DNA of 64,000 nucleotides from an uncultured Helicobacteraceae bacterium (GCA_963542625.1 CAUTXO010000001.1:3068-67067); one strand, 5' to 3'. Counted from the first letter of the stretch, positions 16,004 through 45,443 are shown. The notes: generated by a model from the sequence alone, not told the origin. A program made the numbers and translations.

Positions 16004-16018
16004 TTTCAAATTCAAAGG
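16004..16018. promoter_or_regulatory. Possible Fur-box-like AT-rich dyad upstream of the TonB-dependent receptor
   Basis: tgaataatattttca is partly palindromic (10/15 positions), resembles the TGATAATnATTATCA-type consensus only loosely, and ends 10 nt before the start codon. Confidence 0.2.
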
Positions 16019-16027
16019 ATCAAAAAA

Positions 16028-22725: not shown

Positions 22726-23240
22726 ATGCCTATCCCAAGCCCTGAAAATACGCGCTTGATTTGCTCGCTAGCGCCTTCTATCACTAGGGTTTTTGACTGC
22801 TTTTGTAAAAATAAATGCAAAGAAATTAAGAATAAGATCTTGCTTGTTTGCTCACCTGGCGCCGTGATAGCGGGCGTTGCCGCCGGATCTGCGCTTGGAT
22901 CTAAGCTGGCGTTTGGATCTCTGGCGGTGCCAAGATCTAAGGTAGCGCTAGGATCTACGCCGGCGCTTAGATCTTCGCCAACACTTAGATCTGCGCTAGG
23001 ATCCGCACTCACGCTTAGATCTTCGCCAGCATTTGGATCCGCGCCTAGATCCGCACCGCTGCCTAAGATCCCCGCCGCGCCGCCAAAGATTTTTGAAACA
23101 TCAACTTTCACAGTCGCGGTGAGCTCAAAAGCCTGCGCGGCAATCTCACGCGCTAGACCCCCTAGCCCAGCTGCGCTTAGATCTAGCGGCAAATCAAGCC
23201 TTGTGTGGTCTTGCATAATGCTAATCATCGCCGCGCACAA
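22713..23240 (-). CDS. Hypothetical protein, possibly a STAS-like fold split by a D/L/S/A/G-rich insertion
   Basis: The ends resemble a STAS domain (VKVDVSKIFGGAAGI ... KTLVIEGASEQIKRVFSGLGI). The middle 80 aa or so are encoded by RAGATCY repeats. It overlaps the clpB stop and the cheA start. The assignment is weak. Confidence 0.35.
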   Translation of the reverse strand: MCAAMISIMQDHTRLDLPLDLSAAGLGGLAREIAAQAFELTATVKVDVSKIFGGAAGILGSGADLGADPNAGEDLSVSADPSADLSVGEDLSAGVDPSATLDLGTARDPNASLDPSADPAATPAITAPGEQTSKILFLISLHLFLQKQSKTLVIEGASEQIKRVFSGLGIGICLA

Positions 23241-25803
23241 CCCTTGTTTGCAAGCTGCCGCCTTGCTCGTAGAAAGAAATTTTATCCCCCGCGCCTAGCT
23301 CGTCTTTTAAAATAAGCTCTGCAAGGCTATCTTCTACAAGATTATCAATAGCGCGTTTTAGCGGCCGCGCGCCAAAGACTGGGTCAAAACCCGCGCTCGC
23401 AATAAAAGCAACGGCGCTATCATCTAAAGAAAGTTCGATTTTTTTTGCCTTGAGCTTTGCCGTTAGCTGCTTGCTTAAAAGGCGCACGATTTGCTCGCAT
23501 TCCCTTTGGCTAAGCGGGTTAAATACAATCACGTCGTCTAGGCGGTTGATGAATTCTGGCTTAAAATGGCGCTTTAGCTCATCTTGCACGGCTGCCTTTT
23601 GCGCGGCGGGCTCGCTAATGCTAGCAATCTGGCTCGATGCAATGTTAGACGTCAAAATGATAATGGTGTTTTTAAAATCCACCGTAACGCCCTTGTTGTC
23701 GGTTAAGCGCCCATCATCTAGCACCTGCAAAAGCAAATTAAAGACGTCTGGGTGCGCCTTTTCCACTTCGTCAAACAAAATAATGCTATATGGTTTTTTG
23801 CGAACCGCCATCGTTAGCTGCCCGCCTTCATCATAGCCCACATAGCCAGGCGGCGCGCCAACAAGACGCGAAACGGCGTGCTTTTCCATATATTCGCTCA
23901 TATCAAAACGCACCAGCGCCTTTTGCGTGTCAAACAAAAACTCAGCCAAGATCTTAGCCGTTTGCGTTTTCCCCACGCCCGTTGGCCCTAGAAATAAAAA
24001 GCTTCCAAGCGGGCGGTTTTCATCGTTTAGCCCCGCCTTGCTGCGCTTAATCGCCCGCGCTAGGGCTTGCACGGCGGCTTCTTGCCCCACCACGCCTTGC
24101 TTTAAGATCTCTTCCACTTTTAAAAACTTCTCGCGCTCGCTCGCTAGCATTTTGCTAACGGGAATGCCCGTCCATTTAGAAACCACATCAGCAACGCCCT
24201 CTTCATCGACGCTATTTTTCAAAAGCGTGCCTTCTTTCTCCATCGCCGCCCATTTATCCGCAAGCGTGGCTGCTTCTTGCTCTAGCTTTGGGATCTCGCC
24301 GTATTCTATCTGCGCGGCGGCGTTATAATCGGCTTCTCTTTTTGCCGCTTCTGCACGGCGTTTTGCCGCTTCTAGCGCCTGCTTTTTCTTGCCAATCTCA
24401 TCAAAAACGCTGCTTTCAAGGTCAAAACGCGCTTCTAAAACCGCCCTTTTCTCTTGCAAAGACGCAAGCTCTTTTTCCACTTGCAAAAGCCGCTCGGCGT
24501 CTTTGTTTTCTTTCTCCATCAAAAGCGCTTGCTGCTCCACGCTAAGGCGCGAAATATCGCGCAAGATCTTATCTAGCGCGGCTGGTCTTGACTCAAGCTG
24601 TAACTTAATCTGGCTCGCGGCTTCGTCAATTAAATCGATAGATTTATCAGGCAAAAACCTATCGCTAATGTAGCGCGCGGAGAGATTAACAGCCGCAACG
24701 AGCGCGCCGTCTGTGATGGAGATCTTGTGGAAGTTTTCAAGGCTTTCTTTAATTCCACGCATAATCGATAGCGCCTCATAAATGCTTGGCTCATTCACGG
24801 TAATTGGCTGGAAGCGCCTTTGCATAGCCGCGTCTGCTTCAAAATACTTTCTGTATTCTTTTTGCGTCGTCGCGCCAATCGTGCGTAGCTCCCCGCGCGC
24901 AAGGGCGGGCTTTAGCAAATTTGCCGCGTCCATACTGCCCTCAAGCGCGCCCGCGCCTATAATCGTGTGAATTTCATCGATGAATAAAATCACGTTAGAT
25001 CTTTTCTTGACTTCATCGATGACGGCCTTTAAGCGCTCCTCAAACTCGCCGCGGTATTTCGCCCCCGCAATTAGCAAGCCCATATCAAGCGTAAAAATCG
25101 TCTTATTTTGCAGGGTTTGCGGCACATCGCGTGCCACAATTCTTGCGGCAAGCCCTTCTACAATCGCCGTTTTTCCAACGCCCGCTTCGCCAATTAAAAT
25201 AGGATTATTCTTAGTTTTCCGCAATAAAATTTCAATCGCGCGCTTAATCTCATCGTCTCTGCCAATGACAGGGTCAAGCCCGCCCTGCCGAGCCTTTTTT
25301 GTAAGATCTACGCCGTATTTTTCAAGCGCTTGTAAGTTCTCATCGGCGCTAGCGCTATCGATTTTTTTATCGCCCCTAATCTCTTTTAGCGCGCGCGCTA
25401 GGGCGCTAGGATCTACGTAATCTTTTAGTAGCGGCGCAAGATCTTCAAGGTTTGCAAGCAGCCAAGTATCCGCAGAAATAAAGCTATCGCCTTGCTTGGT
25501 GGCAAGCCCTTGCGCCTTGCTTAGCCCATCTAGGCTTTGGCGCGAAAGGCGGATGCTATCCTTCGTAACGCCTTGCGAGACCACGCCTTGCGCTGCCTGG
25601 CTTTGCAAGAAAAGCTCCAGCGCCTTGCTGTCAATGCCAAGCTTATTAAGCGCCTGACGCAAAATGGAGTTTGTGGTGGTAACCTGCGCCCAGAGAATGT
25701 GGAGATCCACCACTTCTGGGTTTTTGTTTAAGAGCGCTAGGCTCACGGCGGAATTTAGCGCGTTTGCCATTTGCTCGGTGAGTTTTTCAAAAATATCGGG
25801 CAT
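23221..25803 (-). CDS. clpB: ATP-dependent chaperone ClpB
   Basis: 860 aa. Two AAA+ modules ([15 protein letters not shown] and [15 protein letters not shown]) and a long coiled-coil M domain. Confidence 0.95.
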
Positions 25804-26493: not shown

Positions 26494-26524
26494 GATCTAA
26501 CGCGCCAAACGTCAAGATCCTGCG

Positions 26525-26754
26525 CCAAAGATCCACGCGCTAAAATCCAAAATCCGTGCAACGCCAGCGTTAAGATCCAAGACTTAGATCTTAGATCCAA
26601 GCCATAAGATCTAGCGCACCAAAGATCCACGCGCTAAAATCCAAAATCCGTGCAACGCCAGCGTTAAGATCCGCCGCTTAAATCTTAGATCTACACCCCA
26701 AGATCTAGCACGCCAAAGATCCGCACTTAAAACCAAAACCTAGCGCTAAGATCC
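26525..26754. repeat. Tandem repeat with 94-bp period, 2 perfect plus 1 degenerate copy
   Basis: The 54-nt core ccaaagatccacgcgctaaaatccaaaatccgtgcaacgccagcgttaagatcc is identical at 26525-26578 and 26619-26672. A degenerate, shorter third copy lies at 26713-26754. Confidence 0.9.
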
Positions 26755-26767
26755 ACACGCCCGCGCG

Positions 26768-27508
26768 TTAAATCATATTCACGTTTAGGTCACTGGGGCT
26801 ATCAATCTCCACCCAGCCGCCGTCGATAAAAACGGGATAAACATCGCCAAAGCGATTGATGAGAAGCTGAAGAAAGCTCGTCATATACATATTTTCAAAG
26901 CTCTGGCCGTCAAAACTCGCGCGCCTATCAAGGCCATCGTAAAACTCCACCACACGTGCAAGCGCTACGCGGCGAATTTTAATAAGCCCGATGTATTGCC
27001 CCTGCACCTCATCAAGCGAGGCGGGCTTTTTGCCAAGCTCTATTATCTTGCCGCCTGAAATTTTCATCGTTTCTGCGTCGCTAAGCGGGTCTTGCATACG
27101 CGCGCGCCAAAGGGCAAGCCAAGATCTATCCACCACCACGCTCACATCGTGCGGCGCGGCAATGAGCGCCTGCAAAACCTCTGGGCGGTAGGCTATGTCC
27201 GTGTAAGAAATAATCAAGTCGTCCGTGTCAAAAAATTCGCGCGCGCAAAAAAGCGTGGCGACCATATTGCTTGACGCAAACGCCTTGTTTTCAAAAAATT
27301 CCACGCCGCCGCACCCCTGCAAATGCGCCCTTAGCACGTCAAATTTGTAGCCGCCAACGACGGCGATTTTATCCACCAAGGGCCCCGCTAAATCTAGCGC
27401 GCGGTCAATGAGCGGCTTGCCCTGATACGCCACCATACATTTGGGCTTGTCTAAAGTGAGCGGGCGCAAGCGTTTGCCCTGCCCTGCTGCTAGCAAAATA
27501 AGCTTCAC
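26768..27508 (-). CDS. Nucleotidyltransferase (Cj1416-like; candidate CTP:phosphoglutamine cytidylyltransferase)
   Basis: MKLILLAAGQGKRLRPLTLDKPKCMV NTP-transferase signature. GTG start in a GTGA overlap with the upstream gene. Synteny with the MeOPN cassette. Confidence 0.8.
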   Translation of the reverse strand: MKLILLAAGQGKRLRPLTLDKPKCMVAYQGKPLIDRALDLAGPLVDKIAVVGGYKFDVLRAHLQGCGGVEFFENKAFASSNMVATLFCAREFFDTDDLIISYTDIAYRPEVLQALIAAPHDVSVVVDRSWLALWRARMQDPLSDAETMKISGGKIIELGKKPASLDEVQGQYIGLIKIRRVALARVVEFYDGLDRRASFDGQSFENMYMTSFLQLLINRFGDVYPVFIDGGWVEIDSPSDLNVNMI

Positions 27509-28140
27509 GTATCGCCTTTAAAAAAATGTTTGATTAGGTTCATTTGCGCTTGACAAAAGGGCTCGTCGCGCTCGGTGTGCCAGTTTTGCGCAAAGATCCT
27601 AAGGCTTTTGTGCTCTATAGCTTTGATAACGCCCACGCTGTTTGTGGCGCTTGCGATTAGCTCGCTAGCCAAAGCTTCTATGCGGTAGTTGTGGTAAGAA
27701 TTGACGTCTCGTATGGCACTAAGATCTGCGGCGTATTTTGACGCGCCATTAACGCGCAAGCTGTGGCGCACGCGGACTTCGCCAGCCACTTTGGCAAAGC
27801 TGCTGCCAAAAAATTCGGCTACAAGCTGCATTCCGCGGCAAATGCCAAAAATGGGCAAGGCGTTTTTGATGGCAAAATCTAGCAAGGATCTTTCGTATTC
27901 ATCGCGCATTTTAGATAGCGGATCTTGCGGACTATTGACGCTAAGGTCGTTCCCGCCGCTAAGAAGCACGCCAGCTAGCCCCAAATCTGCAGCGTAGCAC
28001 GCGGGGTCTAGCTCGTATGGCAAAAGCACAGGCGTAAAACCAAGCGCGGCGATGAGCTTTGGCAAGCGAAGATCTAGGCAAGATCTTAGCTCGCCGTGCG
28101 CGGGATCTGTGGCTAGGCGTAAAGTTATGCCGATTTTCAC
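27505..28140 (-). CDS. Class-I glutamine amidotransferase / peptidase C26-like hydrolase (Cj1417-like)
   Basis: GGNDL...FGICRGMQL nucleophile elbow and a downstream H..E region. The preferred start is GTG at 28140 (GTGA overlap with the upstream stop). The longest ORF starts at 28170. Confidence 0.8.
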   Translation of the reverse strand: MKIGITLRLATDPAHGELRSCLDLRLPKLIAALGFTPVLLPYELDPACYAADLGLAGVLLSGGNDLSVNSPQDPLSKMRDEYERSLLDFAIKNALPIFGICRGMQLVAEFFGSSFAKVAGEVRVRHSLRVNGASKYAADLSAIRDVNSYHNYRIEALASELIASATNSVGVIKAIEHKSLRIFAQNWHTERDEPFCQAQMNLIKHFFKGDT

Positions 28141-30461
28141 GCTAGAGCCTTTACGCGCGCCCTTAGGCAATCAAGCTCTATAAGCTCTGCGCGTGCAAGC
28201 TCGGCAAAAAGCGGCTCGCCGCAACCAATCGCCGCGGGCAAGCCAAGCTCGGCGCAACGCACCGCCATATGCGAATTTGCTCCGCCATAGCAAGTGATTA
28301 GCCCCGCGATGCCCTTGCCAAACAAAAAGTCATAGCCCGGGTCGGCGTTTTTTATGCAAACGATTTTGCCCGCTAGATCTTGCTCGTAAGGCTCGCCGCG
28401 GCTTGCCGTAACGCTTGCTAGCCCGATGAAATTTGCCTTGCCGCCGCCAATAAAAAACTCGTAAATATCGCTCTGCTGCGTGATTAAAGACGGCAGCTGC
28501 AAGGCTTTGGTGAATTCAAAGGCGTCTTTATTTTGCTTGATGTTTGTTAAAAATAAATTATCCAAATTGTCAAATTCTAGCGTGCTGTAAAGGTTTTTAA
28601 TAACGGCAAAGTCTAAAAACGCCAAGTCTTGCGCGCCGATGCCGCTTTTTGCGCCAAGATCCCCCAGCAAGGAGATTACTTGGCTTAGGTGGCGCGTGAA
28701 TAAAAATTTAGAATACTCGCGCGCTTCTATGGCGTCTTTTATGAATTTTACAAGCCCCGCCGCGCTTGTTTTTAAGCCGTTTTCTACGATCTGCGCGGAG
28801 ATTTTTTCTAGCTGAGCCTGACTAAACGCAAACTCTTTTGTGTCTTTAAACGCGCCCCCCCCCCCGCTGCTACGCGCGCCGAAATATCTATCGTAGTCCT
28901 CGTCGTATCGTGGCGATGTGATGTCGTAAGTGTTGGGGCGCAAATGCCCGTAAAGCTTTAGGAATTCGCCCTTTTCTAGGCGCGCAAAGTCTTTATTCAT
29001 CGTCTTAGAAACGGTGTTTATGCTAGCCAAAAACTCCGCGCGCTCTGGTTCGCTCATAATCCCCTCACTCACAAAAGAATTGAGAATTTGCGTGGCAATA
29101 AACGCCGCGCGCGCCAGCCCCGCAAAGGCTAGCGTGCCATAGCGCTTGCAATCTTCTGTGAGCCAATAAATCGTATCAATAAGCGGCAGCCCAGCATTCA
29201 TCACCGATGAAAATTTTTCATCTAGCAAGGCGATTTTCTCAAGGTCGCGCTGAAAATGCCCGCTCGGGGCTAAAATGCTATTGGTTAGATCCAAAAGCGC
29301 AAACTCAATGCGCTTGATTTCATTGGCGCTAAAGCCTTTGGATCTTAGCCTTTCTAAGCGCCCCGAAATGCCGAAAAAATAGCAAGAAAAGACAATCTCA
29401 AACTCGACCTTATCGTGCAAATGCGCGTTTTGCGCCAGCTCGTCCAGATAATATTCAACGAGTTTTTCGGCAATGTTTTCGTGCAAATTCTTTGGCAAAA
29501 AGGAGTTAAACGAAACGCGCACGTCAATGTATGGAATGCCAAAAAAGCTCACAAGCAGCGGAAACGAGCGCAAATTTCTGTAGCCATAATTGTCGCGCTG
29601 ATACGCCCAAATTTCATCCGTGATGAATTCTTTGTAAAGGCTAAGCGCTAGTTTTTTAGGCCTTAGCCCGATGATTTCAGCGGGGTTCCAATCAGGCATA
29701 ACGCCAAAAATGCTCCTTTTGCCAAGCAATTTTGGGTGGGGGCTGCTTAGTTTTTCGATTTTTTTAGAAAGCTTAGATAGCGCTAGATCTAGGTTCAGCG
29801 CGCTTTTGCCACTAGAATGCGTAAATGCAAGCGGCCTAGCTTGCAAGATAAACACCCGCTCATCGCAAACGGCAAACTCAATGTCAAGGGCGGGATTATC
29901 TAAAACGCTTTCAAGCTCGCGCGCGGCGTCTAAGATCCGCGCTAGATCTTTAGCGGCTGGCCTGTGATCTTTATAGCAAACAAAGGTCTTAAGATCTGCC
30001 TTGCCGCCTGCTGTAACGCTTGTTGTATCGCCGTTTTGTGAGTAATTGACGGTGTAATACGGCGCGCCAGAGGCGCTGAGTGTAAAAATCACGCCGCTAG
30101 CGCCAACGCCACTAAGCATTTCTTGCACAAAAACTTCATCTTGCGCGCAAGGGTTTTTATACGATGCAAAAACGCGCTCGATTGCCGCCTTAAGATCCGC
30201 CGCATTTGGCGCAACGTTTAAAACGCTCTCAAACGCCCCCGCGTTGCTAAAATGCTCTGCGTCTTCATTCACAGACGATGAGCGCACAATAAGCGGAGCG
30301 GAAAACTTTGCCAGCACCGCGCCCACAATGCCTGCCGCGTCTTTTTGAAAATCCGCGTAAGAAAACACGGCAAGCTCTAGCACGGCGGATTTTTTCAGGC
30401 GCCCTTGTAAAAATAAAAGAGTTTGTGCTTTGGAGCGGGTCATACTTTTTTTGCCATCCAC
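28137..30461 (-). CDS. PEP-utilising-enzyme family kinase (Cj1418-like; candidate L-glutamine kinase)
   Basis: 774 aa. An N-terminal PPDK_N/ATP-grasp-like region and a C-terminal phosphohistidine swivel domain (ITCYGGANSHMAVRCAELGLPAAIG). An alternative ATG at 30443 gives an ATGA overlap with the upstream stop. Confidence 0.8.
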   Translation of the reverse strand: MDGKKSMTRSKAQTLLFLQGRLKKSAVLELAVFSYADFQKDAAGIVGAVLAKFSAPLIVRSSSVNEDAEHFSNAGAFESVLNVAPNAADLKAAIERVFASYKNPCAQDEVFVQEMLSGVGASGVIFTLSASGAPYYTVNYSQNGDTTSVTAGGKADLKTFVCYKDHRPAAKDLARILDAARELESVLDNPALDIEFAVCDERVFILQARPLAFTHSSGKSALNLDLALSKLSKKIEKLSSPHPKLLGKRSIFGVMPDWNPAEIIGLRPKKLALSLYKEFITDEIWAYQRDNYGYRNLRSFPLLVSFFGIPYIDVRVSFNSFLPKNLHENIAEKLVEYYLDELAQNAHLHDKVEFEIVFSCYFFGISGRLERLRSKGFSANEIKRIEFALLDLTNSILAPSGHFQRDLEKIALLDEKFSSVMNAGLPLIDTIYWLTEDCKRYGTLAFAGLARAAFIATQILNSFVSEGIMSEPERAEFLASINTVSKTMNKDFARLEKGEFLKLYGHLRPNTYDITSPRYDEDYDRYFGARSSGGGGAFKDTKEFAFSQAQLEKISAQIVENGLKTSAAGLVKFIKDAIEAREYSKFLFTRHLSQVISLLGDLGAKSGIGAQDLAFLDFAVIKNLYSTLEFDNLDNLFLTNIKQNKDAFEFTKALQLPSLITQQSDIYEFFIGGGKANFIGLASVTASRGEPYEQDLAGKIVCIKNADPGYDFLFGKGIAGLITCYGGANSHMAVRCAELGLPAAIGCGEPLFAELARAELIELDCLRARVKALA
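28855..28865 (-). repeat. Poly-G(11) homopolymer inside the glutamine-kinase-like gene
   Basis: Run of 11 C on the + strand. It encodes GGGG in ...RSSGGGGAFKD and is in frame (ON) here. Confidence 0.95.
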
Positions 30462-31267
30462 ATTCTCGTTGTGTATTTGATGTCAAACTCAAGCGGCAAC
30501 GAATGCTCTAGTTTGTAGGCGATCTTGCCAAAAAGCGCTCTGCCTTCTTCGGTGCTAAGATCCCAGTATGGGTTTTTCACGCTCTGCCAGGCTTTGATGT
30601 AATTCTCCCTGCTTTGGCGGAAGTAAAAATCCTGCTCTATAAAGCAAATCTCATCAAAAAGCGCGCGCTGCGTTAGCAAAAATGGCTTTTGATCTTCGCG
30701 CCTAACGCCGCCTGAATAGTTTGGCAATAAGTCCTTGATGACTTCTTGCGCCGTTTCTTGGATTGGGTCGTCAAGATCCCTGTGATTCCACATACAAGCA
30801 AAGCAGCCGCGGGGCTTTAAGATCCTAGCCGTTTCTTTAAGCGCTAGCTCTCTATCTACCACGTTAAAGCTGCTGCCAAAGGTTACAAGATCAAAGCTAG
30901 CATCATCTAGCGTGGTTTCTGTTGCGCCCGCTTTATACCAGGTGGCGTCTTTGCCCTTTGTTCTTTCTATGCCGATTTCTCTCATTGCGTCGTTTGGCTC
31001 AACGGCGCTAACCTTCAAGCCCCGCTCTAGGAGCATAAGCGTTAGGTTTGCCGTGCCAGCGCCTAGATCTGCGGCAACGCCGCGCGGTTTTTCTTGTGCG
31101 CCGTTTTGCGCCCCGCCTTTGCCGCCAAACGCCCATTCGCAAAGCAAGTCTATTGCCTTTGGGCTGTAATTTGGGCGGTAGGTGTAAAACGCCGCGTGCT
31201 TAGTGTAGTTCCATTCTGTTTTGTAGAGCGTGGATTGCCCCCCCCCCCGCTGCTGTAAATTTTTCAT
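30440..31267 (-). CDS. Class I SAM-dependent methyltransferase (Cj1419/Cj1420-like)
   Basis: ADLGAGTANLTLML SAM motif I and FDLVTFGSSFNV motif. Poly-G tract at codons 7-10. Confidence 0.8.
   Translation of the reverse strand: MKNLQQRGGGQSTLYKTEWNYTKHAAFYTYRPNYSPKAIDLLCEWAFGGKGGAQNGAQEKPRGVAADLGAGTANLTLMLLERGLKVSAVEPNDAMREIGIERTKGKDATWYKAGATETTLDDASFDLVTFGSSFNVVDRELALKETARILKPRGCFACMWNHRDLDDPIQETAQEVIKDLLPNYSGGVRREDQKPFLLTQRALFDEICFIEQDFYFRQSRENYIKAWQSVKNPYWDLSTEEGRALFGKIAYKLEHSLPLEFDIKYTTRMWMAKKV
31238..31248 (-). repeat. Poly-G(11) homopolymer at codons 7-10 of the methyltransferase gene
   Basis: Run of 11 C on the + strand. It encodes MKNLQQRGGGQ and is in frame (ON). Confidence 0.95.
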
Positions 31268-31270
31268 TTT

Positions 31271-32035
31271 TCATATCCTTTGCGCCGTCCACGCTCTGAT
31301 TTTATACGGGACGGAAATTATGTCAAGTCCTGAGATCTTGCCTTCTATCATCGCCAAAACTTCCTCCCATTTGTCTCCCGCTTGCGCTTGAATGTCATTG
31401 ACGCTTTTCCACGCGCCGATGTAGCGCTCGCGGCTCATATGCTCGGTGTAGTCAATCTCTGCAAAAAAGCAATTCTTAAAATGCCCGCTGCTCTCAATGA
31501 CCGCCGTCCAGTCCTTGGTGTTTTGCGCCCCGCTTGAAACGCGCTTTAGATCTGGCAGCATTGCGCGGATCTGCTCTTCTATCTCATAAAACACCGTCCC
31601 TTCTTGCAAGTTGCGCGGATTCCACATCGCCGTGAATGAGCCGCCAGGCTTTAAGATCCGCCTAAACTCAGCAAGCGCCGCGGGCGCGTCCGTCCAGTGG
31701 AATGAGCTTGCCATTATCACCCAGTCGTAAGACCCTGCTTCTAGCCCCGTGCTCTCAGCGCTTGCCTTATGCCACGCTGCCTTAGTGTTTTTCGTGTATT
31801 CCACGCCCTCGCTTCGCATTGCGTCGTTTGGCTCAACGGCGGTAACAGCTAGCCCAATATTGCAAAGCATTTTTGTGAGCTTGCCCGTGCCCGCACCAAC
31901 TTCTGCGACCGCAAAATCTCCCCTTGCCGCGCCCCGCTCATTCACGCACAAAAAGAGCTTTTCTAATAGCACACTGCTATACGCGGGGCGGTTGTGGTAG
32001 TCCTTTGCCACCTGTGTAAAATCGCCTTGTTTCAC
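31271..32035 (-). CDS. Class I SAM-dependent methyltransferase (Cj1419/Cj1420-like)
   Basis: AEVGAGTGKLTKML motif I and YDWVIMASSFHW. Paralogous to the neighbouring methyltransferase. GTGA overlap with the upstream gene. Confidence 0.8.
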   Translation of the reverse strand: MKQGDFTQVAKDYHNRPAYSSVLLEKLFLCVNERGAARGDFAVAEVGAGTGKLTKMLCNIGLAVTAVEPNDAMRSEGVEYTKNTKAAWHKASAESTGLEAGSYDWVIMASSFHWTDAPAALAEFRRILKPGGSFTAMWNPRNLQEGTVFYEIEEQIRAMLPDLKRVSSGAQNTKDWTAVIESSGHFKNCFFAEIDYTEHMSRERYIGAWKSVNDIQAQAGDKWEEVLAMIEGKISGLDIISVPYKIRAWTAQRI

Positions 32036-32553
32036 TGTTCTCCTATCAATTTAAGAATTTGCGCCGCCTTTAGATCTAGGGCGTCTTGCCTTGTGTTGTC
32101 TATTTTTAAGTGGCAGTTTTTTGGCATATCAAAAGCTAAATCCATTCCAACGACGTTTTTTACGCCGCCATTTGCCCCGCTAGAAAAGCCGCTGTATAGC
32201 CCCTTTTGGTCGCGCCGTTTGAGCTCATCAAGGGAGCATTCTATAAAGATCTCGTAATACTCACGGACGTTTTTGCGGTTTTGCTCGAAGATCTCGCCAT
32301 AAAGAGACATCGTGGCGCAAACGACGTTAATATCCTGCCCGACCAAAAACGCGCACATAGCCGAGATCCGCCTAGCGTTTAAGAGCCTATCGGCGGGCGT
32401 GTGGCCTAGGTCGTTACCCAAAATGGCGCGGAAGGAGTCGCCGTCTAAAAATACTGTGTTTGGGTGGCGCTTTTTTAGGCGCGCAAAAACTTCTTTGCCG
32501 ATGGTGGTTTTGCCGCTACCGCTTAGCCCTGTGATCCAAATGAGTTTAGCCAT
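32032..32553 (-). CDS. APS-kinase-fold kinase (CysC/Cj1415-like; candidate cytidine diphosphoramidate 3'-kinase)
   Basis: MAKLIWITGLSGSGKTTIGKEV P-loop at the chosen ATG (32553), then FLDGD..R. The longer ORF to 32775 only adds repeat-encoded low-complexity sequence. Confidence 0.85.
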   Translation of the reverse strand: MAKLIWITGLSGSGKTTIGKEVFARLKKRHPNTVFLDGDSFRAILGNDLGHTPADRLLNARRISAMCAFLVGQDINVVCATMSLYGEIFEQNRKNVREYYEIFIECSLDELKRRDQKGLYSGFSSGANGGVKNVVGMDLAFDMPKNCHLKIDNTRQDALDLKAAQILKLIGEQ

Positions 32554-33922
32554 TTTTACCGCTTTGTGCTGGTGTGCGCGTTTGCGCTGGGGCGCTAGAT
32601 CTTGTGCTAGATCTTGCGGCGTTAGATCCAGCAAAGTTAGCACCAGCACCCATAAATCCTGCGGCGTCTTGCGCGGTTTGTTCGCCTTGCGCTTCTTGCG
32701 CGCCGTTAGATCCCGCGTTAGATCTCGCGCCACTGGATCTGCCATTTGCTGCGCGGATCTCATCACGCAAGGCAAGCACGCTTTCTACCACCGCGCATTT
32801 TTTGGCTTTGTAACGCAAAATAAACACGATGTTTTTCACAAAGCGCCTAAAAATAATCATCGGCTTTAACACCCCTAAGCGCTCTAAAAACCTAAGCACC
32901 GGCACGGTTAAAAGATGCGAATACTCGTAAGAATAATGAAACGAAAGCAAGTTTAATAAATTCACGCGTGAGTCGCCTAAAAGCTCTGCGCGGCAAATGG
33001 CGCTTTGGCTCATATCCGCCTTGGTGCAAAGCTTGTAGCCAGCGGCAAGATAAAGCGGCGCAAACATAGTCTCAAAGGCAAGCTGTTCTTCTTGGCTTAG
33101 GGCATCGTAAGTGATTTCTTTTTGCACTTCAAGCATCAGGTCTCCTTTAGCAGATTCATACTCCCAAGCCTTACCCATAAAGGTAGCCTTTAGCAAAGAT
33201 GGCGTAAATTCCAAGCCGACACGCTCGCAAAGATCTTTCATACAAACGTCTGGATCCATATGCAAATCTTCTAACCTAAGCGTGATGTAATTAGCAAGAT
33301 CCTTATGCAAAAAGTAATTTTTCATCCCGAATTTATACGCTTCTAATAAGCCCAAAACATAATTTACAGCCGTATTTTTTAACTTTTGCTTTAGCCTGAT
33401 GTGAGAAACGATGGCATTACTCATATCCCTAAACATATGCACGATAAAAACGTTTTTAAAGATAGCCTCTCGTTCTTTTAAGTAGAGCTCGCTCGGGTTT
33501 GAATGAATGTGCTCTACTATGTGCGTTACGTTTGTAAAATTAAAGCAAGCGGCAATAGCTGCGTAAAAACTTTCTATGTAATTTTTAACGGATCTTTGCC
33601 TAGCCGCTGCTGGAATAAAAACGTCCTTAAACTTCTGCGTATCAAAACTTAAGGTGTTTTTGCTGTAAAAAAAGTTATTTGCCGTGCTGAATTTATTCAC
33701 GTAAGGGTCTCTAAAAAAGCTCTCGCAAAGCATATCAAGCGACAAATCCATACGCGATGAAAAAAACTCATAACTATCAAAAAAACCGCTTGGCACAAAG
33801 GCAACGTTTTTATGCCCGTCTAGCATACTTTGAAGCAAGCTAGATCCGCTCCTGCTATGCACGTAAATATAGATGATTGTAAGATGTTCTAAACTTTTCA
33901 TTTTATCTGCAATAAATTCCAA
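32546..33922 (-). CDS. Sulfotransferase-fold protein (candidate phosphoramidate transferase) with low-complexity C-terminal tail
   Basis: IYVHSRSGSSLLQSMLDGH resembles the 5'-phosphosulfate-binding loop of bacterial sulfotransferases. An alternative ATG at 33901 gives an ATGA overlap. The last 70 aa or so are A/S/G/Q-rich. It overlaps the kinase start by 8 nt. Confidence 0.6.
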   Translation of the reverse strand: MEFIADKMKSLEHLTIIYIYVHSRSGSSLLQSMLDGHKNVAFVPSGFFDSYEFFSSRMDLSLDMLCESFFRDPYVNKFSTANNFFYSKNTLSFDTQKFKDVFIPAAARQRSVKNYIESFYAAIAACFNFTNVTHIVEHIHSNPSELYLKEREAIFKNVFIVHMFRDMSNAIVSHIRLKQKLKNTAVNYVLGLLEAYKFGMKNYFLHKDLANYITLRLEDLHMDPDVCMKDLCERVGLEFTPSLLKATFMGKAWEYESAKGDLMLEVQKEITYDALSQEEQLAFETMFAPLYLAAGYKLCTKADMSQSAICRAELLGDSRVNLLNLLSFHYSYEYSHLLTVPVLRFLERLGVLKPMIIFRRFVKNIVFILRYKAKKCAVVESVLALRDEIRAANGRSSGARSNAGSNGAQEAQGEQTAQDAAGFMGAGANFAGSNAARSSTRSSAPAQTRTPAQSGKNG

Positions 33923-35532
33923 AAGATGTATTCGTAATTTGCCCGCGCGCGCATATGATCTTCAAACATTTTCCAAATGCCCTTTTTGTTAAAGCGCTCA
34001 TCTAGGGATCCTATGCGCTCACTTAAGAGTTCTTTTAACTCGTTTCTAAACCAAGCGCCAAGCGGGACGCTAAAGCCCCTTTTTGGCCTAGCTGTTAGAT
34101 CTTGCGGGATTAGCCCCTTTAAAAGCTCGCGCAATAAAAATTTGTTTGCGCGCAAATAAAAGGGCAAAGAGTTTGCAAATTCCACAAAACGGCTATCCAA
34201 AAAAGGCGCAACGGCATCTAGCCCATAATAATAAGACGCACCAAAGGACTTCACAAAAACATCGCCTGTTAAATAATGCCTTTTATCAAGGGCGTTTAGG
34301 CTTTGTTCAATGTTACGTGGATCTAAGGGTGCGCGCTCTCCCAAAAGCTCATAAAACCCAAGACGCCTACCTTGCAAAAAATCCGCGCTAAAGACTTTTG
34401 AAAGATCCCAGGGCTTAAGAGCGCCAAAAACGGACGCGTAGATATTTTCAAGGCTTGGATTTTTCACAAAAAACGCGGCTTTTTTAAGCCTTTGCACGTT
34501 TGAATATTCAAATGCCAAGCCAAGCAAAGATCTAAGCGCACTAGGAATTGGGCGCAAAATCCTATACGCGCGCCTTGTGAATTGGTAGCGTTTATAGCCA
34601 AAAAAAAGCTCGTCCGCGCCATCGCCACCTAAAGCCACCTTAACGTGCTTGGCGGTTTCTTTGCAAAGTAGCATAAAAGCAAGGCTTGAAGTATCGCCAA
34701 AGGGCTCGTAATACGCCTTGCCAAAATCTTGCATCAGCGCCAAAACATCTTTTGCGCTAAAGATGAATTCAAAATGTTCGGTTTGCAAATATTTGGATGT
34801 TTGCGCAGCAAAGGGTGCTTCGTTATATGCGCGCTCTTTAAAAGCCACCGTAAATGTTTTTAGCTTTGATGTTTTTTTAGCAGCAATGGCGGCTAAAGCC
34901 GAGCTATCCACGCCCCCGCTTAAAAAAACGCCGATGTCTTCTTTTGGCGCTGGCAAACAAAGATCCAAAAGGCGCCTTGCTTCTTCTAGGGCTTCCTTTA
35001 GATTGTAGTTTTTTGCATCTTGCACGCTAGCGTAATAGATCTTTGGCGCTTCTAATTTTTTGCAAAATTCCAAATACATACCGCCGTAAAGCTTTTTTAC
35101 ACCGTCAAAATAGCAAGTGCCAAATGGGTAAAAGCCAAAGCTAACGAATTTAATCAGCACGTCTTGATTTGCGTTTTTTAAAAAATTTTCAGGTAGCAAA
35201 TCCGCCCTTAGCGCAAAGGCAAATTCGCCACCACCATAGGCGTAATACAAGGGCTTGCTACCGATTTTATCTTGCATAAGGTATAGCTTGCCAGCGGTTT
35301 TATCAAACAGCACAATTATAAATGTGCCGTAAAGTTTGTTTAAGATCCTAGCCGCGCCTAGCTTTCGCAATTCTTGCAAAAACTCTTCAGCGGTTTTTGC
35401 CTTGCTAAGATCTAGCGGTTCAAAAGTAGCGCCGTATATTGAGCCGTAAAAGCTAAGCTCAAAGTCTGCGCCTAAAATGTTATTGCCAAGATCTCCCGTA
35501 ATCTTTACGCCGTTTGCCGTGGTTAGGTTCAT
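33898..35532 (-). CDS. Asparagine-synthase-family amidoligase lacking the N-terminal Cys nucleophile
   Basis: PP-loop FLSGGVDSSALAAIA is present. The N-terminus MNLTTANG... has no Cys2, whereas the two paralogues start MCGI. Confidence 0.8.
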   Translation of the reverse strand: MNLTTANGVKITGDLGNNILGADFELSFYGSIYGATFEPLDLSKAKTAEEFLQELRKLGAARILNKLYGTFIIVLFDKTAGKLYLMQDKIGSKPLYYAYGGGEFAFALRADLLPENFLKNANQDVLIKFVSFGFYPFGTCYFDGVKKLYGGMYLEFCKKLEAPKIYYASVQDAKNYNLKEALEEARRLLDLCLPAPKEDIGVFLSGGVDSSALAAIAAKKTSKLKTFTVAFKERAYNEAPFAAQTSKYLQTEHFEFIFSAKDVLALMQDFGKAYYEPFGDTSSLAFMLLCKETAKHVKVALGGDGADELFFGYKRYQFTRRAYRILRPIPSALRSLLGLAFEYSNVQRLKKAAFFVKNPSLENIYASVFGALKPWDLSKVFSADFLQGRRLGFYELLGERAPLDPRNIEQSLNALDKRHYLTGDVFVKSFGASYYYGLDAVAPFLDSRFVEFANSLPFYLRANKFLLRELLKGLIPQDLTARPKRGFSVPLGAWFRNELKELLSERIGSLDERFNKKGIWKMFEDHMRARANYEYIFWNLLQIK

Positions 35533-36668
35533 TTGCCATCGCCATTTAAACGCAAAAATTCATACAAACCCGCTAGCTTAACGCTCCAGCTAAGCCTTTC
35601 TTTTGCCATTTTTTGCATATCTTTTTGCGCTTGCTCTAGATCTAGGGCATCGTAAAATTCCACAATACGCTCTAAATCAATCTGCGTTTCGTTTGCTTCA
35701 AGCTTTAAGGCAAAGCTTTCCTGCGCGTTTAGATCCACGTCATCATAAGCATAAACAAAGGGTATCCCCCGCGCAATGTATTCGCGCGTTTTTAGGGCGC
35801 AAGCTTGCTGTATTTTGTTGCGGAAAACAGCAAGGCTTGAGATGGCAAGGTCGCACGATGAAAACTCAAGATCTAGCTTCTCACGCCCAAGCAAACCGCA
35901 AACGGTTATATCAACAAGCGGGTTTTTAATAGAGCTAATATGCTGCTCTTGGCTAGCTGTAACTTTCCCTACAATTTTGAGCGAGATCTTTTTAGCGCCG
36001 CGATACGCCTTGGCGCCGGCTAAGATCCTATCCAAACCGTGCCAATGCGTAAAATTAGACGCTACAAAGATTATCCTAAGATCTATGACGCGCTTTTGCC
36101 TTTTTACAAAACTAAAAGCGTTTTCATCTATGCCGTTTGAAAAAACAAAAAACGGCTTAGCTCTTAAGATCTTGCGCTCTTGCAAGGCGGCAATCTCCCC
36201 CGTTACCGCAACAAACCCACGCACAAAATTCAAATAAAACAGCGACAAAATGCTTTCAACAAAAGCCTTTATTTTGTTTTTTACGCCACCGCTTGCGGAT
36301 ATTTCCATAATCTCGTTCGTATGATGCTCGGAAAATATTTTTTTGCCGTATTTAAGCGCAAAGAAAAAGGATGAAAAATCAGAATTTGCGTAGCGTAAAA
36401 CAATCAAATCATATTTATTCAAATCAACCGTTTTTGCAAGTAGGTAGTATCTAAAAAGCTTCCTAGCTATCCGGTCTATGGCGGGGTGAAAAAACGGCGC
36501 GGGGCTAACTAAATGCAAATTGCCATATGTGCCGTTTGTGCCAGAATTTAAAAGGATAAAGTCCATATCCAAGCCAGCCTTTGCGGCTAGAAGCGCCTGC
36601 TCTTTTAACTTTTTTTCAACACCGCAAATGCTACCTGATAAAAAAATATTAATGTGCGCTACTTTCAA
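35529..36668 (-). CDS. Glycosyltransferase, GT-B (group 1/GT4-like)
   Basis: FSNGIDENAF..., ...IFVASNF..HGLDRIL and LKTREYIARGIPFV resemble the GT4 donor-binding C-terminal half. Confidence 0.6.
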   Translation of the reverse strand: MKVAHINIFLSGSICGVEKKLKEQALLAAKAGLDMDFILLNSGTNGTYGNLHLVSPAPFFHPAIDRIARKLFRYYLLAKTVDLNKYDLIVLRYANSDFSSFFFALKYGKKIFSEHHTNEIMEISASGGVKNKIKAFVESILSLFYLNFVRGFVAVTGEIAALQERKILRAKPFFVFSNGIDENAFSFVKRQKRVIDLRIIFVASNFTHWHGLDRILAGAKAYRGAKKISLKIVGKVTASQEQHISSIKNPLVDITVCGLLGREKLDLEFSSCDLAISSLAVFRNKIQQACALKTREYIARGIPFVYAYDDVDLNAQESFALKLEANETQIDLERIVEFYDALDLEQAQKDMQKMAKERLSWSVKLAGLYEFLRLNGDGK

Positions 36669-37713
36669 TAATTTCCTTTACTATTTTTTCACACGCTCTG
36701 CCGTCGCCGTATAGGGGCTTAACCGGCTTTGAAACGCTTTTTATTTTTAGATAAGCATTTATCATACTATTGCCCCCCCCCCCGACCAGAACATTTGCGC
36801 CTTCATCTACTAGCTCGCTCCATTCTGTTTCATCTCTTGCAACAACGCAACGCTTACCAAAAAAATACGCTTCCTTTTGCAAACCGCCACTATCGGTTAT
36901 GGCAACTGAGCAATGCAAAAGCAGCCAGATCATCTCCAAATAGCCAACTGGATCTGTGACGCAAATATCGCCGGTAGAAATTCCAAAAGCATCAAGCGCG
37001 CCTTTTGTGCGTGGGTGGAGCGGCAAAACCACTTGCTCGTGCTTTGCAATTTCACGCAAGCCGCTAAAAATACTTTCAAGACGCGCTTTATCGTCCGTGT
37101 TTTCTGCTCTGTGAATGGTAGCAAGCACAAAGTTTGAGCTAAGATCTAGCCCCGGGCGCCTTGCTTTTTCTTTGTAATACAGGGCGCCGTCAAACATCAC
37201 ATCGCCACTATTTACAACGCGCACGCCAAAATTTCCAAAGCCCTCACGCTCTAAATTTTGCACGGCAAGATCCGTAGGGCAAAACAAAAACGCGCTTAGT
37301 CTGTCGGTTAAGATCCTGTTTATTTCTTCTGGCATTTTCATATTAAAACTACGCAAGCCCGCTTCAATATGCGCGATTTTTATATGCAACTTAGCAGCAG
37401 TAAGCGCCGCGGCTAGCGTTGAGTTTGTGTCGCCATAAACTAGCACAAGATCTGGTGATAGCTCTAGCATAACGCTCTCTAGCGCTTCCATCATTTTTGC
37501 CGTTTGCGCCGCGTGGGAATTTGCCCTGATGTTTAGCTTAAAGTGCGGTTTTGGAATGTCTAGCTCGTCAAAAAATATATCGCTCATATTAAGATCATAG
37601 TGCTGACCGGTATGGATTATAAACTCTTGTATCTCGGTGTTTTTTAGCGCCCGGCTAAAGCTTGCCGCCTTTATAAATTGCGGCCTGGCGCCTAAAACGG
37701 TTGCTATCTTCAT
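36649..37713 (-). CDS. wecB: UDP-N-acetylglucosamine 2-epimerase (non-hydrolysing type)
   Basis: MKIATVLGARPQFIKAA..., HTGQHYD, VLVYGDTNSTLA, HIEAGLRSFN, TDSGGLQKEA signature blocks. Confidence 0.9.
   Translation of the reverse strand: MKIATVLGARPQFIKAASFSRALKNTEIQEFIIHTGQHYDLNMSDIFFDELDIPKPHFKLNIRANSHAAQTAKMMEALESVMLELSPDLVLVYGDTNSTLAAALTAAKLHIKIAHIEAGLRSFNMKMPEEINRILTDRLSAFLFCPTDLAVQNLEREGFGNFGVRVVNSGDVMFDGALYYKEKARRPGLDLSSNFVLATIHRAENTDDKARLESIFSGLREIAKHEQVVLPLHPRTKGALDAFGISTGDICVTDPVGYLEMIWLLLHCSVAITDSGGLQKEAYFFGKRCVVARDETEWSELVDEGANVLVGGGGNSMINAYLKIKSVSKPVKPLYGDGRACEKIVKEIIESSAH
36773..36783 (-). repeat. Poly-G(11) homopolymer near the 3' end of wecB
   Basis: Run of 11 C on the + strand. 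It encodes VGGGGNS and lies about 105 nt upstream of the overlapping glycosyltransferase start. Confidence 0.95.
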
Positions 37714-39524
37714 TCTATGCCGCCAAAAACTTCAAGCCATTTTGCGTAGGCAATCACTCTCCAAAACTTACCGCTGTAAGCTTGCTTGCCGCTTATAAAC
37801 GCATCAAAATCGCTCAAGATCTTTTCATTTATATACTTGCTTTTTTGCGCCGCCAAAGCTAGCTCGTCCCGCAAAAAAACGTGATGCTTTTTAAACCAAA
37901 GCGCTTCAGGCGTTGCAAAACCTATCTTATCTTTTCTAGATGAAATGATTGCCGGCAAGATCTTAGCCAAAGCTTCACGCAAGATCCGTTTAGTTTGCCC
38001 ACGGTGAATTTTACGCGTTTTATCAGCACAAAGCAAAAACTCCACCAAGCGATAATCCAAAAACGGCAACCTAGATTCAACGGACGAAAACATAGAATTC
38101 CTATCTTCATAGTGCAAAAGCGCCGGTAGGTTGGTGTGGAAGATCTGCGCTAGGGACATTTTGGCTAGGTTACTGCTGCGCTCTCCATAATCTATATACG
38201 GGAATTTAACGTCTATGTTTTTAAATAAATCCGTATTTAGCCACGCGCTCTTTGCGGGCTTAACTAGCTTTTTTATAAACGCCGGCAGTGTGTAAAACAG
38301 CGCCCTGGCAATCAAATAAAACTTTGAAATACCGTGCATCTTGCTAAGGGCTGCTACTTCTTTTGTAAATAAGCCAAACTGAAACTTCACCAAGCATTCC
38401 GACAAAAACGAGTAAAAATATTCATTGTAGCCGCCTAAGATCTCATCGGCACCCTGACCGTCTAGCATAACCTTTATGCCAAGATCTTTCGCCCTTTCAA
38501 ACACGCAAAATTGCGCAAAAATGGACGTTGAAGCATAGGGAACATCTTGCGCGTATATGGTTTTTTTCAAAAAATCCGCATCAAGGAGCCTATCTAGATC
38601 TGGGTAGATCTTATGGCTTGCGATGTTTTTTTGGCTTGCCACACCATCTATAAACAAGCTCTCGTCTATGTTTTTATCCGCGTAGCAAGCGCTAACACAG
38701 TCTAGGCGCTTATCGCTCAAAACATCATCTGCCATAGAAACAATGGACGAGCTATCAAGCCCACCAGATAGACAAGATCCAACACTCACATCCGCCCTAA
38801 GCCGCAAAGAAACAGCGGATCTAAAAAGCTCCAAAAAGTCTGCGGATCTAGTCTGCGGCTCATACCACTTGCTGATACTATAAGAATTAGCTTGCAAGTC
38901 GTAAAGTAGCTTTTCGCCCGCGCACAGCTGCTTTATGGATCTAAAGAATGTATTTTGATTGTAGTCTATCAGCGCGTTTTGCAAAAAGTTATACACAGCT
39001 TCTTCATCAACGCACGCGTCAAAGTTTTCAAGGGCTACAAACTGCTTAATCTCCGAGCCAAACACAAAAAAATCACCTATTTTTGAGTAGTAAAAAGGCT
39101 TAACGCCAAACCTATCCCTAGCGCAAAAAACGGTTTTTTGTAGTTTGTCGTAAATGGCAAAAGCCCACATACCGTTTAAGCGCCATAAGCAATCTTGCCC
39201 AAAGAAATCATAGGCTGCTAAAATAACTTCCGTATCGCCAGCGGTTGTGAAGGCATAGCCCTTATCTAAAAGCTCTTGTTTTAATTCTTGGAAGTTGTAG
39301 ATCTCGCCGTTATATACAATCGTGTAGCGCTCCAAATAAGACATAGGCTGATTAGAACAAGCCCCAAGATCTACGATAGAAAGCCTGCGATGCCCAAGCG
39401 CCACGCCATCATCTACAAAAACACCCGAAGAATCTGGCCCCCTGTGCTTGACGGCGTCAAGCATAAGCGGCAAGTAGCCCTTTGGTATAGGCTTATTAGC
39501 TAGTATGCCTGCTATGCCACACAT
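37710..39524 (-). CDS. Asparagine synthase (glutamine-hydrolysing) family amidotransferase
   Basis: MCGIAG Ntn nucleophile, HRRLSIVD and PP-loop CLSGGLDSSSIVSMA. Confidence 0.85.
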   Translation of the reverse strand: MCGIAGILANKPIPKGYLPLMLDAVKHRGPDSSGVFVDDGVALGHRRLSIVDLGACSNQPMSYLERYTIVYNGEIYNFQELKQELLDKGYAFTTAGDTEVILAAYDFFGQDCLWRLNGMWAFAIYDKLQKTVFCARDRFGVKPFYYSKIGDFFVFGSEIKQFVALENFDACVDEEAVYNFLQNALIDYNQNTFFRSIKQLCAGEKLLYDLQANSYSISKWYEPQTRSADFLELFRSAVSLRLRADVSVGSCLSGGLDSSSIVSMADDVLSDKRLDCVSACYADKNIDESLFIDGVASQKNIASHKIYPDLDRLLDADFLKKTIYAQDVPYASTSIFAQFCVFERAKDLGIKVMLDGQGADEILGGYNEYFYSFLSECLVKFQFGLFTKEVAALSKMHGISKFYLIARALFYTLPAFIKKLVKPAKSAWLNTDLFKNIDVKFPYIDYGERSSNLAKMSLAQIFHTNLPALLHYEDRNSMFSSVESRLPFLDYRLVEFLLCADKTRKIHRGQTKRILREALAKILPAIISSRKDKIGFATPEALWFKKHHVFLRDELALAAQKSKYINEKILSDFDAFISGKQAYSGKFWRVIAYAKWLEVFGGIE

Positions 39525-45413: not shown

Positions 45414-45443
45414 AGCTATCCTTAAAAACGCAAATTGTAACGC

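Follow-up and report, generated by a model that had tools for sequence, protein, structure and literature searches.

A candidate methyl phosphoramidate-type decoration system with a sulfotransferase-fold protein as putative transferase in a poly-G-studded operon of an uncultured Campylobacterota bacterium

An uncultured Helicobacteraceae bacterium is the source of a 64,000-nucleotide (nt) stretch of DNA (GCA_963542625.1 CAUTXO010000001.1:3068-67067), referred to here as the window, which carries on its minus strand a cassette of seven genes at 26768-33922. This region probably encodes an O-methyl phosphoramidate (MeOPN)-type decoration system in which a sulfotransferase-fold protein (ST) serves as the transferase and which lies within a 21-gene operon dotted with poly-G tracts. 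By sequence comparison, six of the seven genes are clear homologues of Cj1415-Cj1420 of Campylobacter jejuni (35-58% identity), and together they very probably constitute a phosphoramidate donor pathway. The seventh, ST, is assigned with moderate confidence as a phosphoramidate transferase using 3'-phospho-cytidine diphosphate (CDP)-amidate, a donor similar to 3'-phosphoadenosine 5'-phosphosulfate (PAPS). Judged by its gene content, the system resembles the C. jejuni MeOPN pathway but lacks the DUF2972 transferase and the kps context of the latter.

The donor cassette and the proposed reaction sequence

As a preliminary description of the window had stated, the cassette comprises seven contiguous minus-strand genes; all seven open reading frames (ORFs) were found, the folds proposed for them were matched by Pfam, and the motifs GLSGSGKTT, GGANSHMAVRCAELGLPA, FGICRGMQL and LAAGQGKRLRP are all present in the cassette proteins. 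With corrected starts, the junctions consist of ATGA or GTGA overlaps, one 8-nt overlap or a 3-nt gap, and this spacing makes translational coupling of the genes plausible. A capsule locus of C. jejuni (L020) served as the reference, and its genes are named by their position in that locus, which runs in the order DUF2972 gene, two methyltransferases, glutamine kinase, hydrolase, cytidylyltransferase, kinase, kpsC and kpsS.

The L-glutamine kinase homologue (Cj1418-like, 774 aa; 28137-30461, probable start ATG 30443; PPDK_N and PEP-utilizers domains) scores 948 bits against the NCBIfam model NF004508 (PRK05849; cut-off 501) and at most 63 bits against any phosphoenolpyruvate (PEP) synthase or pyruvate phosphate dikinase (PPDK) model. 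It is 47% identical to the Cj1418-position protein over its full length (769 aligned residues), and the histidine of its swivel domain, H731, lines up with H737 in the C. jejuni counterpart.

The cytidine diphosphoramidate 3'-kinase homologue (Cj1415-like, 173 aa; 32032-32553; APS_kinase domain) starts at ATG 32553, the longer ORF to 32775 being an out-of-frame overlap with the upstream gene. It reaches 186 bits against NF004041 (PRK05541; cut-off 127) and falls below the cut-off of the genuine adenosine 5'-phosphosulfate (APS) kinase model TIGR00455 (116 vs 138.7 bits). Its identity is 41% to the C. jejuni kinase, 65% to the kinase of an Arcobacteraceae cassette and 30% to a kinase adjacent to ATP sulfurylase. 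The preliminary description had called for a comparison of these two enzymes with PpsA/PPDK and CysC, best hits to which would have spoken against a donor pathway; they fall in the Cj1418 and Cj1415 families, with best matches outside the PpsA and CysC clades. A change of FISP to T(M/I)S(L/M) was considered as a marker of cytidine specificity in the kinase and dropped, because a kinase beside ATP sulfurylase also lacks FISP.

The gamma-glutamyl-CDP-amidate hydrolase homologue (Cj1417-like; 27505-28170, likely start GTG 28140; Pfam Peptidase_C26/GATase, the latter denoting glutamine amidotransferase) finds its best NCBIfam family in NF045546, which bears that same name (3e-40, ahead by 28 orders of magnitude, though with a score below the curated cut-off). 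It shares 35% identity with the Cj1417-position protein and conserves the cysteine of GICRG as well as the histidine-glutamate pair of WH(T/I)E. The cytidine triphosphate (CTP):phosphoglutamine cytidylyltransferase homologue (Cj1416-like, 246 aa; 26768-27508; Pfam NTP_transf_3, 3e-16) is 49% identical to the Cj1416-position gene product over its full length; no dedicated curated model matched it, and its substrates are presumptive. Among PDB sequences, searches with the Cj1415-Cj1417 homologues found nothing more specific than generic APS kinases, GATases and nucleotidyltransferases.

The two S-adenosylmethionine (SAM)-dependent methyltransferases (both Methyltransf_11) lie directly upstream of the glutamine kinase gene and are reciprocal best matches of the Cj1419- and Cj1420-position genes. 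The one at 30440-31267 is 57% identical to the Cj1419-position L020_2135_2896 and 30% to its paralogue, and the one at 31271-32035 is 58% identical to the Cj1420-position L020_1272_2075 and 37% to its paralogue. Taken with the NCBIfam scores, the 35-58% identities to the C. jejuni locus support, at the level of homology, the earlier reading of the cassette as a MeOPN-type donor pathway. In C. jejuni, Cj1415-Cj1418 jointly produce CDP-phosphoramidate 3'-phosphate, whereas no function is assigned to Cj1419 and Cj1420, and MeOPN is lost when Cj1421 or Cj1422 is lost (PMC11800397).

The donor-synthesis steps are known here only by homology to the enzymes characterized in C. jejuni. In the proposed sequence, the cytidylyltransferase would join the product of the glutamine kinase step to cytidine monophosphate derived from CTP, the C26-type hydrolase would take off glutamate to give cytidine diphosphoramidate, and the APS-kinase-like enzyme would phosphorylate the 3'-hydroxyl to yield 3'-phospho-CDP-amidate, a structural analogue of PAPS. 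ST, encoded immediately upstream of the kinase with an 8-nt overlap, is postulated to bind this compound through its 5'- and 3'-phosphate motifs and to move the phosphoramidate onto a hydroxyl of a cytoplasmically assembled acceptor, with the two methyltransferases providing the O-methyl group. The acceptor would most likely be the sugar product of the 21-gene operon, which encodes WecB-like and glycosyltransferase family 4 (GT4) enzymes, three AsnB-like amidotransferases and acetyltransferases. Decoration might be switched on and off by seven in-frame poly-G tracts, two of which lie in the genes for the glutamine kinase and the Cj1419-like methyltransferase.

The sulfotransferase-fold protein as candidate transferase

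ST (32546-33922, minus strand; Sulfotransfer_3, 38.4 bits, cut-off 27) most likely starts at ATG 33901, in an ATGA overlap with the upstream stop. It consists of a catalytic domain at about residues 1-300, followed by a long C-terminal helix and a low-complexity tail. The 50 best matches of its AlphaFold model (mean predicted local distance difference test score (pLDDT) 76.8) in a Foldseek search of the PDB are all sulfotransferase-fold proteins that bind PAPS or its product 3'-phosphoadenosine 5'-phosphate (PAP), with tyrosylprotein sulfotransferases at the top (best E 7.5e-8). ST aligns with the CurM sulfotransferase at two motifs, SRSGSS (the 5'-phosphosulfate loop) and FRDMSNAIVS (the 3'-phosphate motif), and across 68 sequences (ST and 67 distant relatives) R165 never varies and G26 almost never does. 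Only two close relatives (94% and 51% identity) were retrieved from 1.84 billion representative proteins, the next best match having an E value of 1e-12. Both a signal peptide and a membrane span are absent from the ST model, so the transfer would be cytoplasmic.

A sulfotransferase-fold protein had already been put forward as the putative transferase; the fold is borne out by Sulfotransfer_3 and the structural model, homology to Cj1421/Cj1422 is not, and the role itself is deduced from several lines of evidence. The Cj1415 product resembles PAPS, and ST keeps both phosphate-binding motifs. Pfam scans of the window ORFs of at least 150 aa gave no match to ATP sulfurylase (sat or cysDN), which also argues for a transferase of phosphoramidate. 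A sulfation-type locus with a distant ST relative (L083), for comparison, holds Sulfotransfer_3, ATP sulfurylase and APS kinase genes together.

Recurrence of the association points in the same direction. Pfam-positive Sulfotransfer_3 genes stand directly beside the cassette in six other loci (L006, L040, L062, L066, L077 and L079), whose hosts are metagenome-assembled genomes (MAGs) of Campylobacterales, an alphaproteobacterium, Bryobacterales, Steroidobacteraceae (two) and an unclassified proteobacterium. The Campylobacterales locus, L006, has the same order of ST-like gene, kinase, methyltransferase and glutamine kinase, with an overlapping ST-kinase junction. Including the window and L082, a contig of a close relative, the coupling of sulfotransferase and kinase thus exists in three diverged versions.

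L082 also provides an allele swap. It shares 98.8% identity with the window in the kinase and 98.6% in the methyltransferase, whereas the catalytic domain of its ST (first ~330 residues) is only ~41% identical (L082:206-1654 vs window 32546-33901). From window position 32903 downstream, the two are 92% identical in nucleotide sequence, which places a breakpoint inside the ST gene near 32903, and the gene upstream of ST is a GT4-type glycosyltransferase in L082 versus an AsnB-like gene in the window. The swap keeps the C-terminal helix of ST and exchanges its catalytic domain together with the upstream glycan genes, as expected of an acceptor-specific enzyme. The evidence for the role of ST from chemistry, the lack of sulfate activation, recurrence and the allele swap is considered moderately strong.

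Relation to the DUF2972 transferases

DUF2972 (PF11186) is the domain carried by the Cj1421 and Cj1422 proteins. No window ORF of at least 150 aa matches PF11186, tblastn of the window with two DUF2972 proteins found nothing, and a DUF2972 gene is absent from ~26 kb downstream and ~30 kb upstream of the cassette. An R-D-P-I-S motif is invariant across thirteen DUF2972 proteins, whose HGxG-like stretch also has a nearly invariant glycine. A C. jejuni protein of the Cj1421/Cj1422 type (P0333, 615 aa), named 'putative sugar transferase' in one source, was modelled with AlphaFold (mean pLDDT 79.1), and nine of the ten best PDB matches of this model are sulfotransferases, with Foldseek probabilities of 0.60-0.99 (at least 0.87 for six of the nine). 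A search of PDB sequences with the DUF2972 profile gave no meaningful match. The weak resemblance of the DUF2972 model to sulfotransferases agrees with the role proposed for ST, as evidence that is suggestive only.

More tentatively, sulfotransferase-fold proteins might be general catalysts of phosphoramidate transfer from 3'-phospho-CDP-amidate, a class that would take in the ST family, the Sulfotransfer_3 genes of other phyla, an unannotated family found at 31 loci (described below) and the DUF2972 enzymes. If so, phosphoramidate decoration would be a widespread PAPS-like group transfer onto non-capsular acceptors instead of a peculiarity of the Campylobacter capsule, with an acceptor-binding domain exchanged between strains and, in the present case, a phase-variable donor supply.

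Alternative explanations

Several points weigh against an MeOPN-type system with ST as its transferase. The production of phosphoramidate by this organism is argued from homology throughout, and the hydrolase scores 138 bits against NF045546, under the curated cut-off of 250. The 21-gene operon contains one recognizable glycosyltransferase and neither an initiating transferase nor a flippase or exporter, and the acceptor may be encoded elsewhere in the genome, of which the window represents 64 kb. In the closest relative, L081, the ST gene is split by a 1-nt deletion outside any homopolymer (L081:9537-10891, column 368), which indicates either that ST is dispensable there (a pseudogene) or that the assembly is in error. 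Comparison of ST with Cj1421/Cj1422 gave a BLASTP E value of 0.12 (to a 614-aa family member) and an hhalign probability of 4.8%, and the structural link of P0333 to sulfotransferases is weak (Foldseek E 0.03-0.5, template modelling (TM) score ~0.4). Homology between ST and DUF2972 is not claimed, since both sequence comparisons are non-significant and the correspondence is at the level of motifs only. Phase variation was rejected as an explanation of the L081 frameshift because the deletion lies outside a homopolymer.

The frameshift in L081, where the cassette itself is intact, would suit an arrangement in which a genuine donor cassette works with a DUF2972 transferase and a conventional kps locus elsewhere in the genome, so that the C. 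jejuni paradigm is split over two loci. The limited extent of the window leaves room for such genes, and the cassette loci of Helicobacter, Wolinella and Campylobacter do carry DUF2972 genes. In those genera, however, the DUF2972 genes are usually adjacent to the cassette, which is not the case in the flanks of the cassette here; moreover, sulfotransferase-kinase coupling recurs in the window, L082 and L006, and the allele swap ends precisely inside the ST gene. A split locus is therefore considered unlikely.

Two further readings retain parts of the locus and reassign its product. It is rather improbable that ST is a true PAPS-dependent sulfotransferase acting on a glycosaminoglycan-like polymer made by the upstream genes (C5-epimerase-like, WecB, GT4), with the proximity of the cassette being incidental: ST exceeds the Sulfotransfer_3 threshold, its best structural matches are sulfotransferases, and a protein with a glucuronyl C5-epimerase C-terminal domain is encoded in the same low-GC block, but the scanned ORFs of at least 150 aa include no ATP sulfurylase, which the sulfation-type locus L083 does hold. 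Furthermore, the only APS-kinase-like gene in the window is of the Cj1415 type and, along with the cassette, remains conserved (98.8%) across the swap of the ST domain, and in unrelated phyla, too, sulfotransferase-family genes are found beside the cassette. A non-glycan product, such as a phosphoramidate peptide, a small molecule or a protein side chain, is very improbable. The tyrosylprotein sulfotransferases among the top structural matches of ST, the lack of a flippase or exporter and the presence of radical SAM/SPASM, FemAB-like and three AsnB-like genes, types that are found in peptide pathways too, fit such a product. Nevertheless, WecB, GT4, WbqC and the hexapeptide and PseH-like acetyltransferases belong to sugar pathways, the best-matching models of the FemAB-like and AsnB-like proteins are tied to an exopolysaccharide system, and no precursor-peptide gene was noticed in a non-exhaustive search. 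Phosphoramidate decoration by ST of a sugar product of the operon is retained as the preferred reading.

The 21-gene operon and its surroundings

The cassette forms the 3' end of a gap-free, 21-gene minus-strand operon that extends to 48995 through overlapping or abutting ORFs. Its upstream part (33898-48995, minus strand) comprises 14 genes, annotated with Pfam and NCBIfam, and has the same order in L081. From ST outward, these encode an AsnB-like protein lacking the N-terminal cysteine, a GT4 glycosyltransferase, WecB, another AsnB-like protein, a C5-epim_C protein, a methyltransferase, a radical SAM/SPASM protein, a 390-aa protein, WbqC, a PseH-like GNAT-family protein, a 243-aa protein, a hexapeptide acetyltransferase, a FemAB-like protein and a third AsnB-like protein; neither the 390-aa nor the 243-aa protein matches a family. 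The WecB-like protein is assigned as a non-hydrolysing uridine diphosphate (UDP)-N-acetylglucosamine 2-epimerase (WecB model 302 bits, cut-off 210), and the best models of the FemAB-like and AsnB-like proteins are those associated with the PEP-CTERM exopolysaccharide system. The gene overlapping the ST start (33898-35532) is AsnB-like, encodes no N-terminal catalytic cysteine and has a weak amidotransferase domain; its product is probably not glutamine-dependent.

Guanine-cytosine (GC) content is uneven along the operon, with values of 0.39-0.45 from ST to the 390-aa gene (32546-43508), 0.49-0.53 in the donor genes (26768-32553) and 0.47-0.53 in the 5' block (43505-48995). The operon looks like a mosaic of parts of different origin, and the contrast between the ST block and the donor genes agrees with an exchange of the ST domain and the upstream glycan genes. 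Promoter and terminator scans at the two ends of the operon yielded no more hits than shuffled sequence did. The flanks consist of housekeeping and motility genes, with cheA/cheW, clpB and thiE on one side and an SLT-domain gene, flgH, valS and htpG on the other.

Polysaccharide-export families, including ABC-transporter, ABC-2, Wza-type and Capsule_synth, have no Pfam match among the window ORFs of at least 150 aa, nor do the families of O-antigen flippases, polymerases, ligases and oligosaccharyltransferases. In addition, tblastn of the window with C. jejuni KpsC and KpsS found nothing. These results are taken as the absence of kps, wzx/wzy, waaL and pglB from the 64 kb, as had been reported before, and a kps capsule encoded within the window is accordingly excluded as the acceptor. 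The earlier account of the cassette context was correct on the missing export genes and had overlooked the embedding in a 21-gene glycan operon with poly-G tracts.

Poly-G tracts

A homopolymer scan revealed seven coding-strand tracts of G10-G11 in the operon genes, all in frame and on the minus strand. G11 tracts are located in the glutamine kinase gene (28855-28865), in the Cj1419-like methyltransferase gene at codon 7 (31238-31248) and in the WecB-like gene (36773-36783), and the remaining four (39619-39628, 40776-40786, 41541-41550 and 44821-44831) lie in the C5-epim_C gene, the third methyltransferase gene, the radical SAM gene and the gene of the 243-aa protein. Only one other G/C run of at least nine exists in the 64 kb, a G9 at 61318-61326. 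The capsule cluster of C. jejuni NCTC 11168 holds six of that strain's 29 poly-G/C tracts (PMC8437040); with that precedent, the tracts in the operon genes make phase variation by slipped-strand mispairing likely here. L081 keeps five tracts in the compared stretch, which ends before the seventh, and the sixth, in the radical SAM gene, is interrupted. Its glutamine kinase tract is a G10 with different flanks, versus G11 in the window, and is also in frame; between the window and L081, no frame-changing length variant was seen.

Host lineage and distribution of the cassette

The host is, on protein identities, an uncultured, deep-branching and poorly sampled member of Campylobacterota: outside one 100%-identical database cluster (NCBI, ENA and Logan), its ClpB (23221-25803) has at most 66% identity to other sequences, and its glutamine kinase reaches 51% to its best match among species-representative genomes. 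The nearest neighbours of ClpB are from Campylobacterales MAGs, Hydrogenimonas, Nitratiruptor and Nitrosophilus. L081 (run SRR33858005) is the closest relative, with ~98% identity over the aligned ST-gene region and the same gene order.

A scan of a one-genome-per-species collection with the glutamine kinase identified 225 relatives, of which 80 loci were taken for analysis. The kinase, at least one methyltransferase, the glutamine kinase, the hydrolase and the cytidylyltransferase are all together in 63 of the 80; as these loci were retrieved by the glutamine kinase alone, the grouping is far beyond chance. A cytidylyltransferase homologue is present in 75. Hosts include Acidobacteriota, Bryobacterales, Steroidobacteraceae, Geobacter, Spirochaetaceae, Arcobacteraceae, Sulfuricurvum, Helicobacter, Wolinella, Campylobacter and an archaeal Thermoplasmatales MAG. 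In the literature examined, MeOPN is regarded as restricted to Campylobacter (PMC6429109, PMC9561416), and enterohepatic Helicobacter was already known to possess cj1419-cj1422 homologues (PMC6247508). The kinase gene is upstream of the glutamine kinase gene in 69 of 74 kinase-bearing loci, the C. jejuni NCTC 11168-type order occurring in five. The preliminary description had noted that gene content and order match C. jejuni, with the kinase beside the putative transferase as an exception; among the loci, that placement is the majority order.

Several other families accompany the cassette. A gene of the CysQ/inositol-monophosphatase family occurs with it in 21 of the 80 loci (e.g., L026:15558-16400, L006:12920-13666 and L063:13298-14083) and not in the window; in L006 it sits between the hydrolase and cytidylyltransferase genes. 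By analogy with the action of CysQ on PAP, such a phosphatase could remove the 3'-phosphate from the spent nucleotide. An unannotated family (cluster-10) adjoins the cassette in 31 loci, mostly of Acidobacteriota (e.g., L048:14777-15850), and contains a GxGR loop and the motifs R-H-P-L-D-S and L-R-L-E-D-F, which are reminiscent of sulfotransferases; hhalign and a PDB profile search gave only weak, non-significant matches to sulfotransferase motifs (E 0.003-0.5). A conserved protein of ~425 aa, with a signal-peptide-like N-terminus and metallophosphoesterase-like GNHDY motifs, accompanies the cassette in nine loci, mostly of Acidobacteriota-type MAGs (e.g., L038:14639-15910).

Comparison with known systems

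The MeOPN locus of C. jejuni NCTC 11168 (cj1415c-cj1422c) is the closest characterized counterpart: all six of its donor and methyltransferase genes have homologues in the window at 35-58% identity, the order of methyltransferases, glutamine kinase, hydrolase and cytidylyltransferase is the same, and the catalytic histidine, the Cys-His-Glu residues and the presence of poly-G tracts in the locus are common to both. Unlike C. jejuni, the window has a Sulfotransfer_3-family protein in place of a DUF2972 transferase and lacks kpsC/kpsS or other kps genes nearby. Its kinase gene is upstream of the methyltransferases, whereas that of C. jejuni is at the 3' end, and its cassette poly-G tracts are in the glutamine kinase and Cj1419-like genes and not in the transferase gene. 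The hosts also differ, that of the window belonging to a different, deep-branching lineage.

Enterohepatic Helicobacter and Wolinella loci (L014, L022, L026, L027, L063 and L073) share the kinase-first order with the window and have AsnB-like genes nearby, and several contain hexapeptide acetyltransferase or WecB-like genes, as the window does. L022 and L073 carry DUF2972 genes, while none was detected in the analysed flanks of L014, L026, L027 and L063, or in the window. All six loci carry a CysQ-like phosphatase gene; the window has none.

PAPS-dependent sulfation follows the same logic, with a 3'-phosphorylated nucleoside 5'-diphospho-X donor and a sulfotransferase-fold enzyme, and both phosphate motifs of such enzymes are kept in ST. 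In the window, however, activation would proceed through glutamine kinase, cytidylyltransferase and hydrolase instead of ATP sulfurylase, cytidine is the presumed nucleotide, and phosphoramidate would be what is transferred. Outside Campylobacter, Cj1416-Cj1418-like genes also appear in a glycoconjugate-rich region of Borg extrachromosomal elements, according to parts of a preprint (bioRxiv 10.1101/2024.11.05.622173). In those parts, Cj1416-, Cj1417- and Cj1418-like functions are assigned to the cluster of this archaeal element from structure predictions only.

Phosphoramidate chemistry is probably much more widespread than assumed, given the cassettes of Acidobacteriota, Bryobacterales, Geobacter, Spirochaetes, Arcobacteraceae and an archaeal MAG. 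Transfer is the least understood step of the pathway, and the coupling of ST to the 3'-kinase offers a concrete mechanism for it, in which a PAPS-like donor would be used by a PAPS-type enzyme; ST is, moreover, a small soluble candidate for biochemistry. The locus appears to combine a conserved donor module with exchangeable, acceptor-specific transferases and poly-G switches, an arrangement of relevance to phage receptors, serotyping and glycoconjugate vaccine design in Campylobacterota.

Additional sequence features

AT skew is unusually high (0.27-0.33) at 14001-18000, over chemoreceptor and TonB-dependent receptor genes. Two tandem 94-bp AAGATC-rich repeats, 88% identical (26522-26709; repeat family D1), separate the last cassette gene from the convergent thiE. 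The 10-mer AAGATCTARC occurs at 25 sites in the window versus 0.13 expected from shuffles, in both genic and intergenic positions (e.g., 26492, 26606, 26700, 32594, 32606 and 49073), and may be an uptake-signal-like or repeat-element motif.

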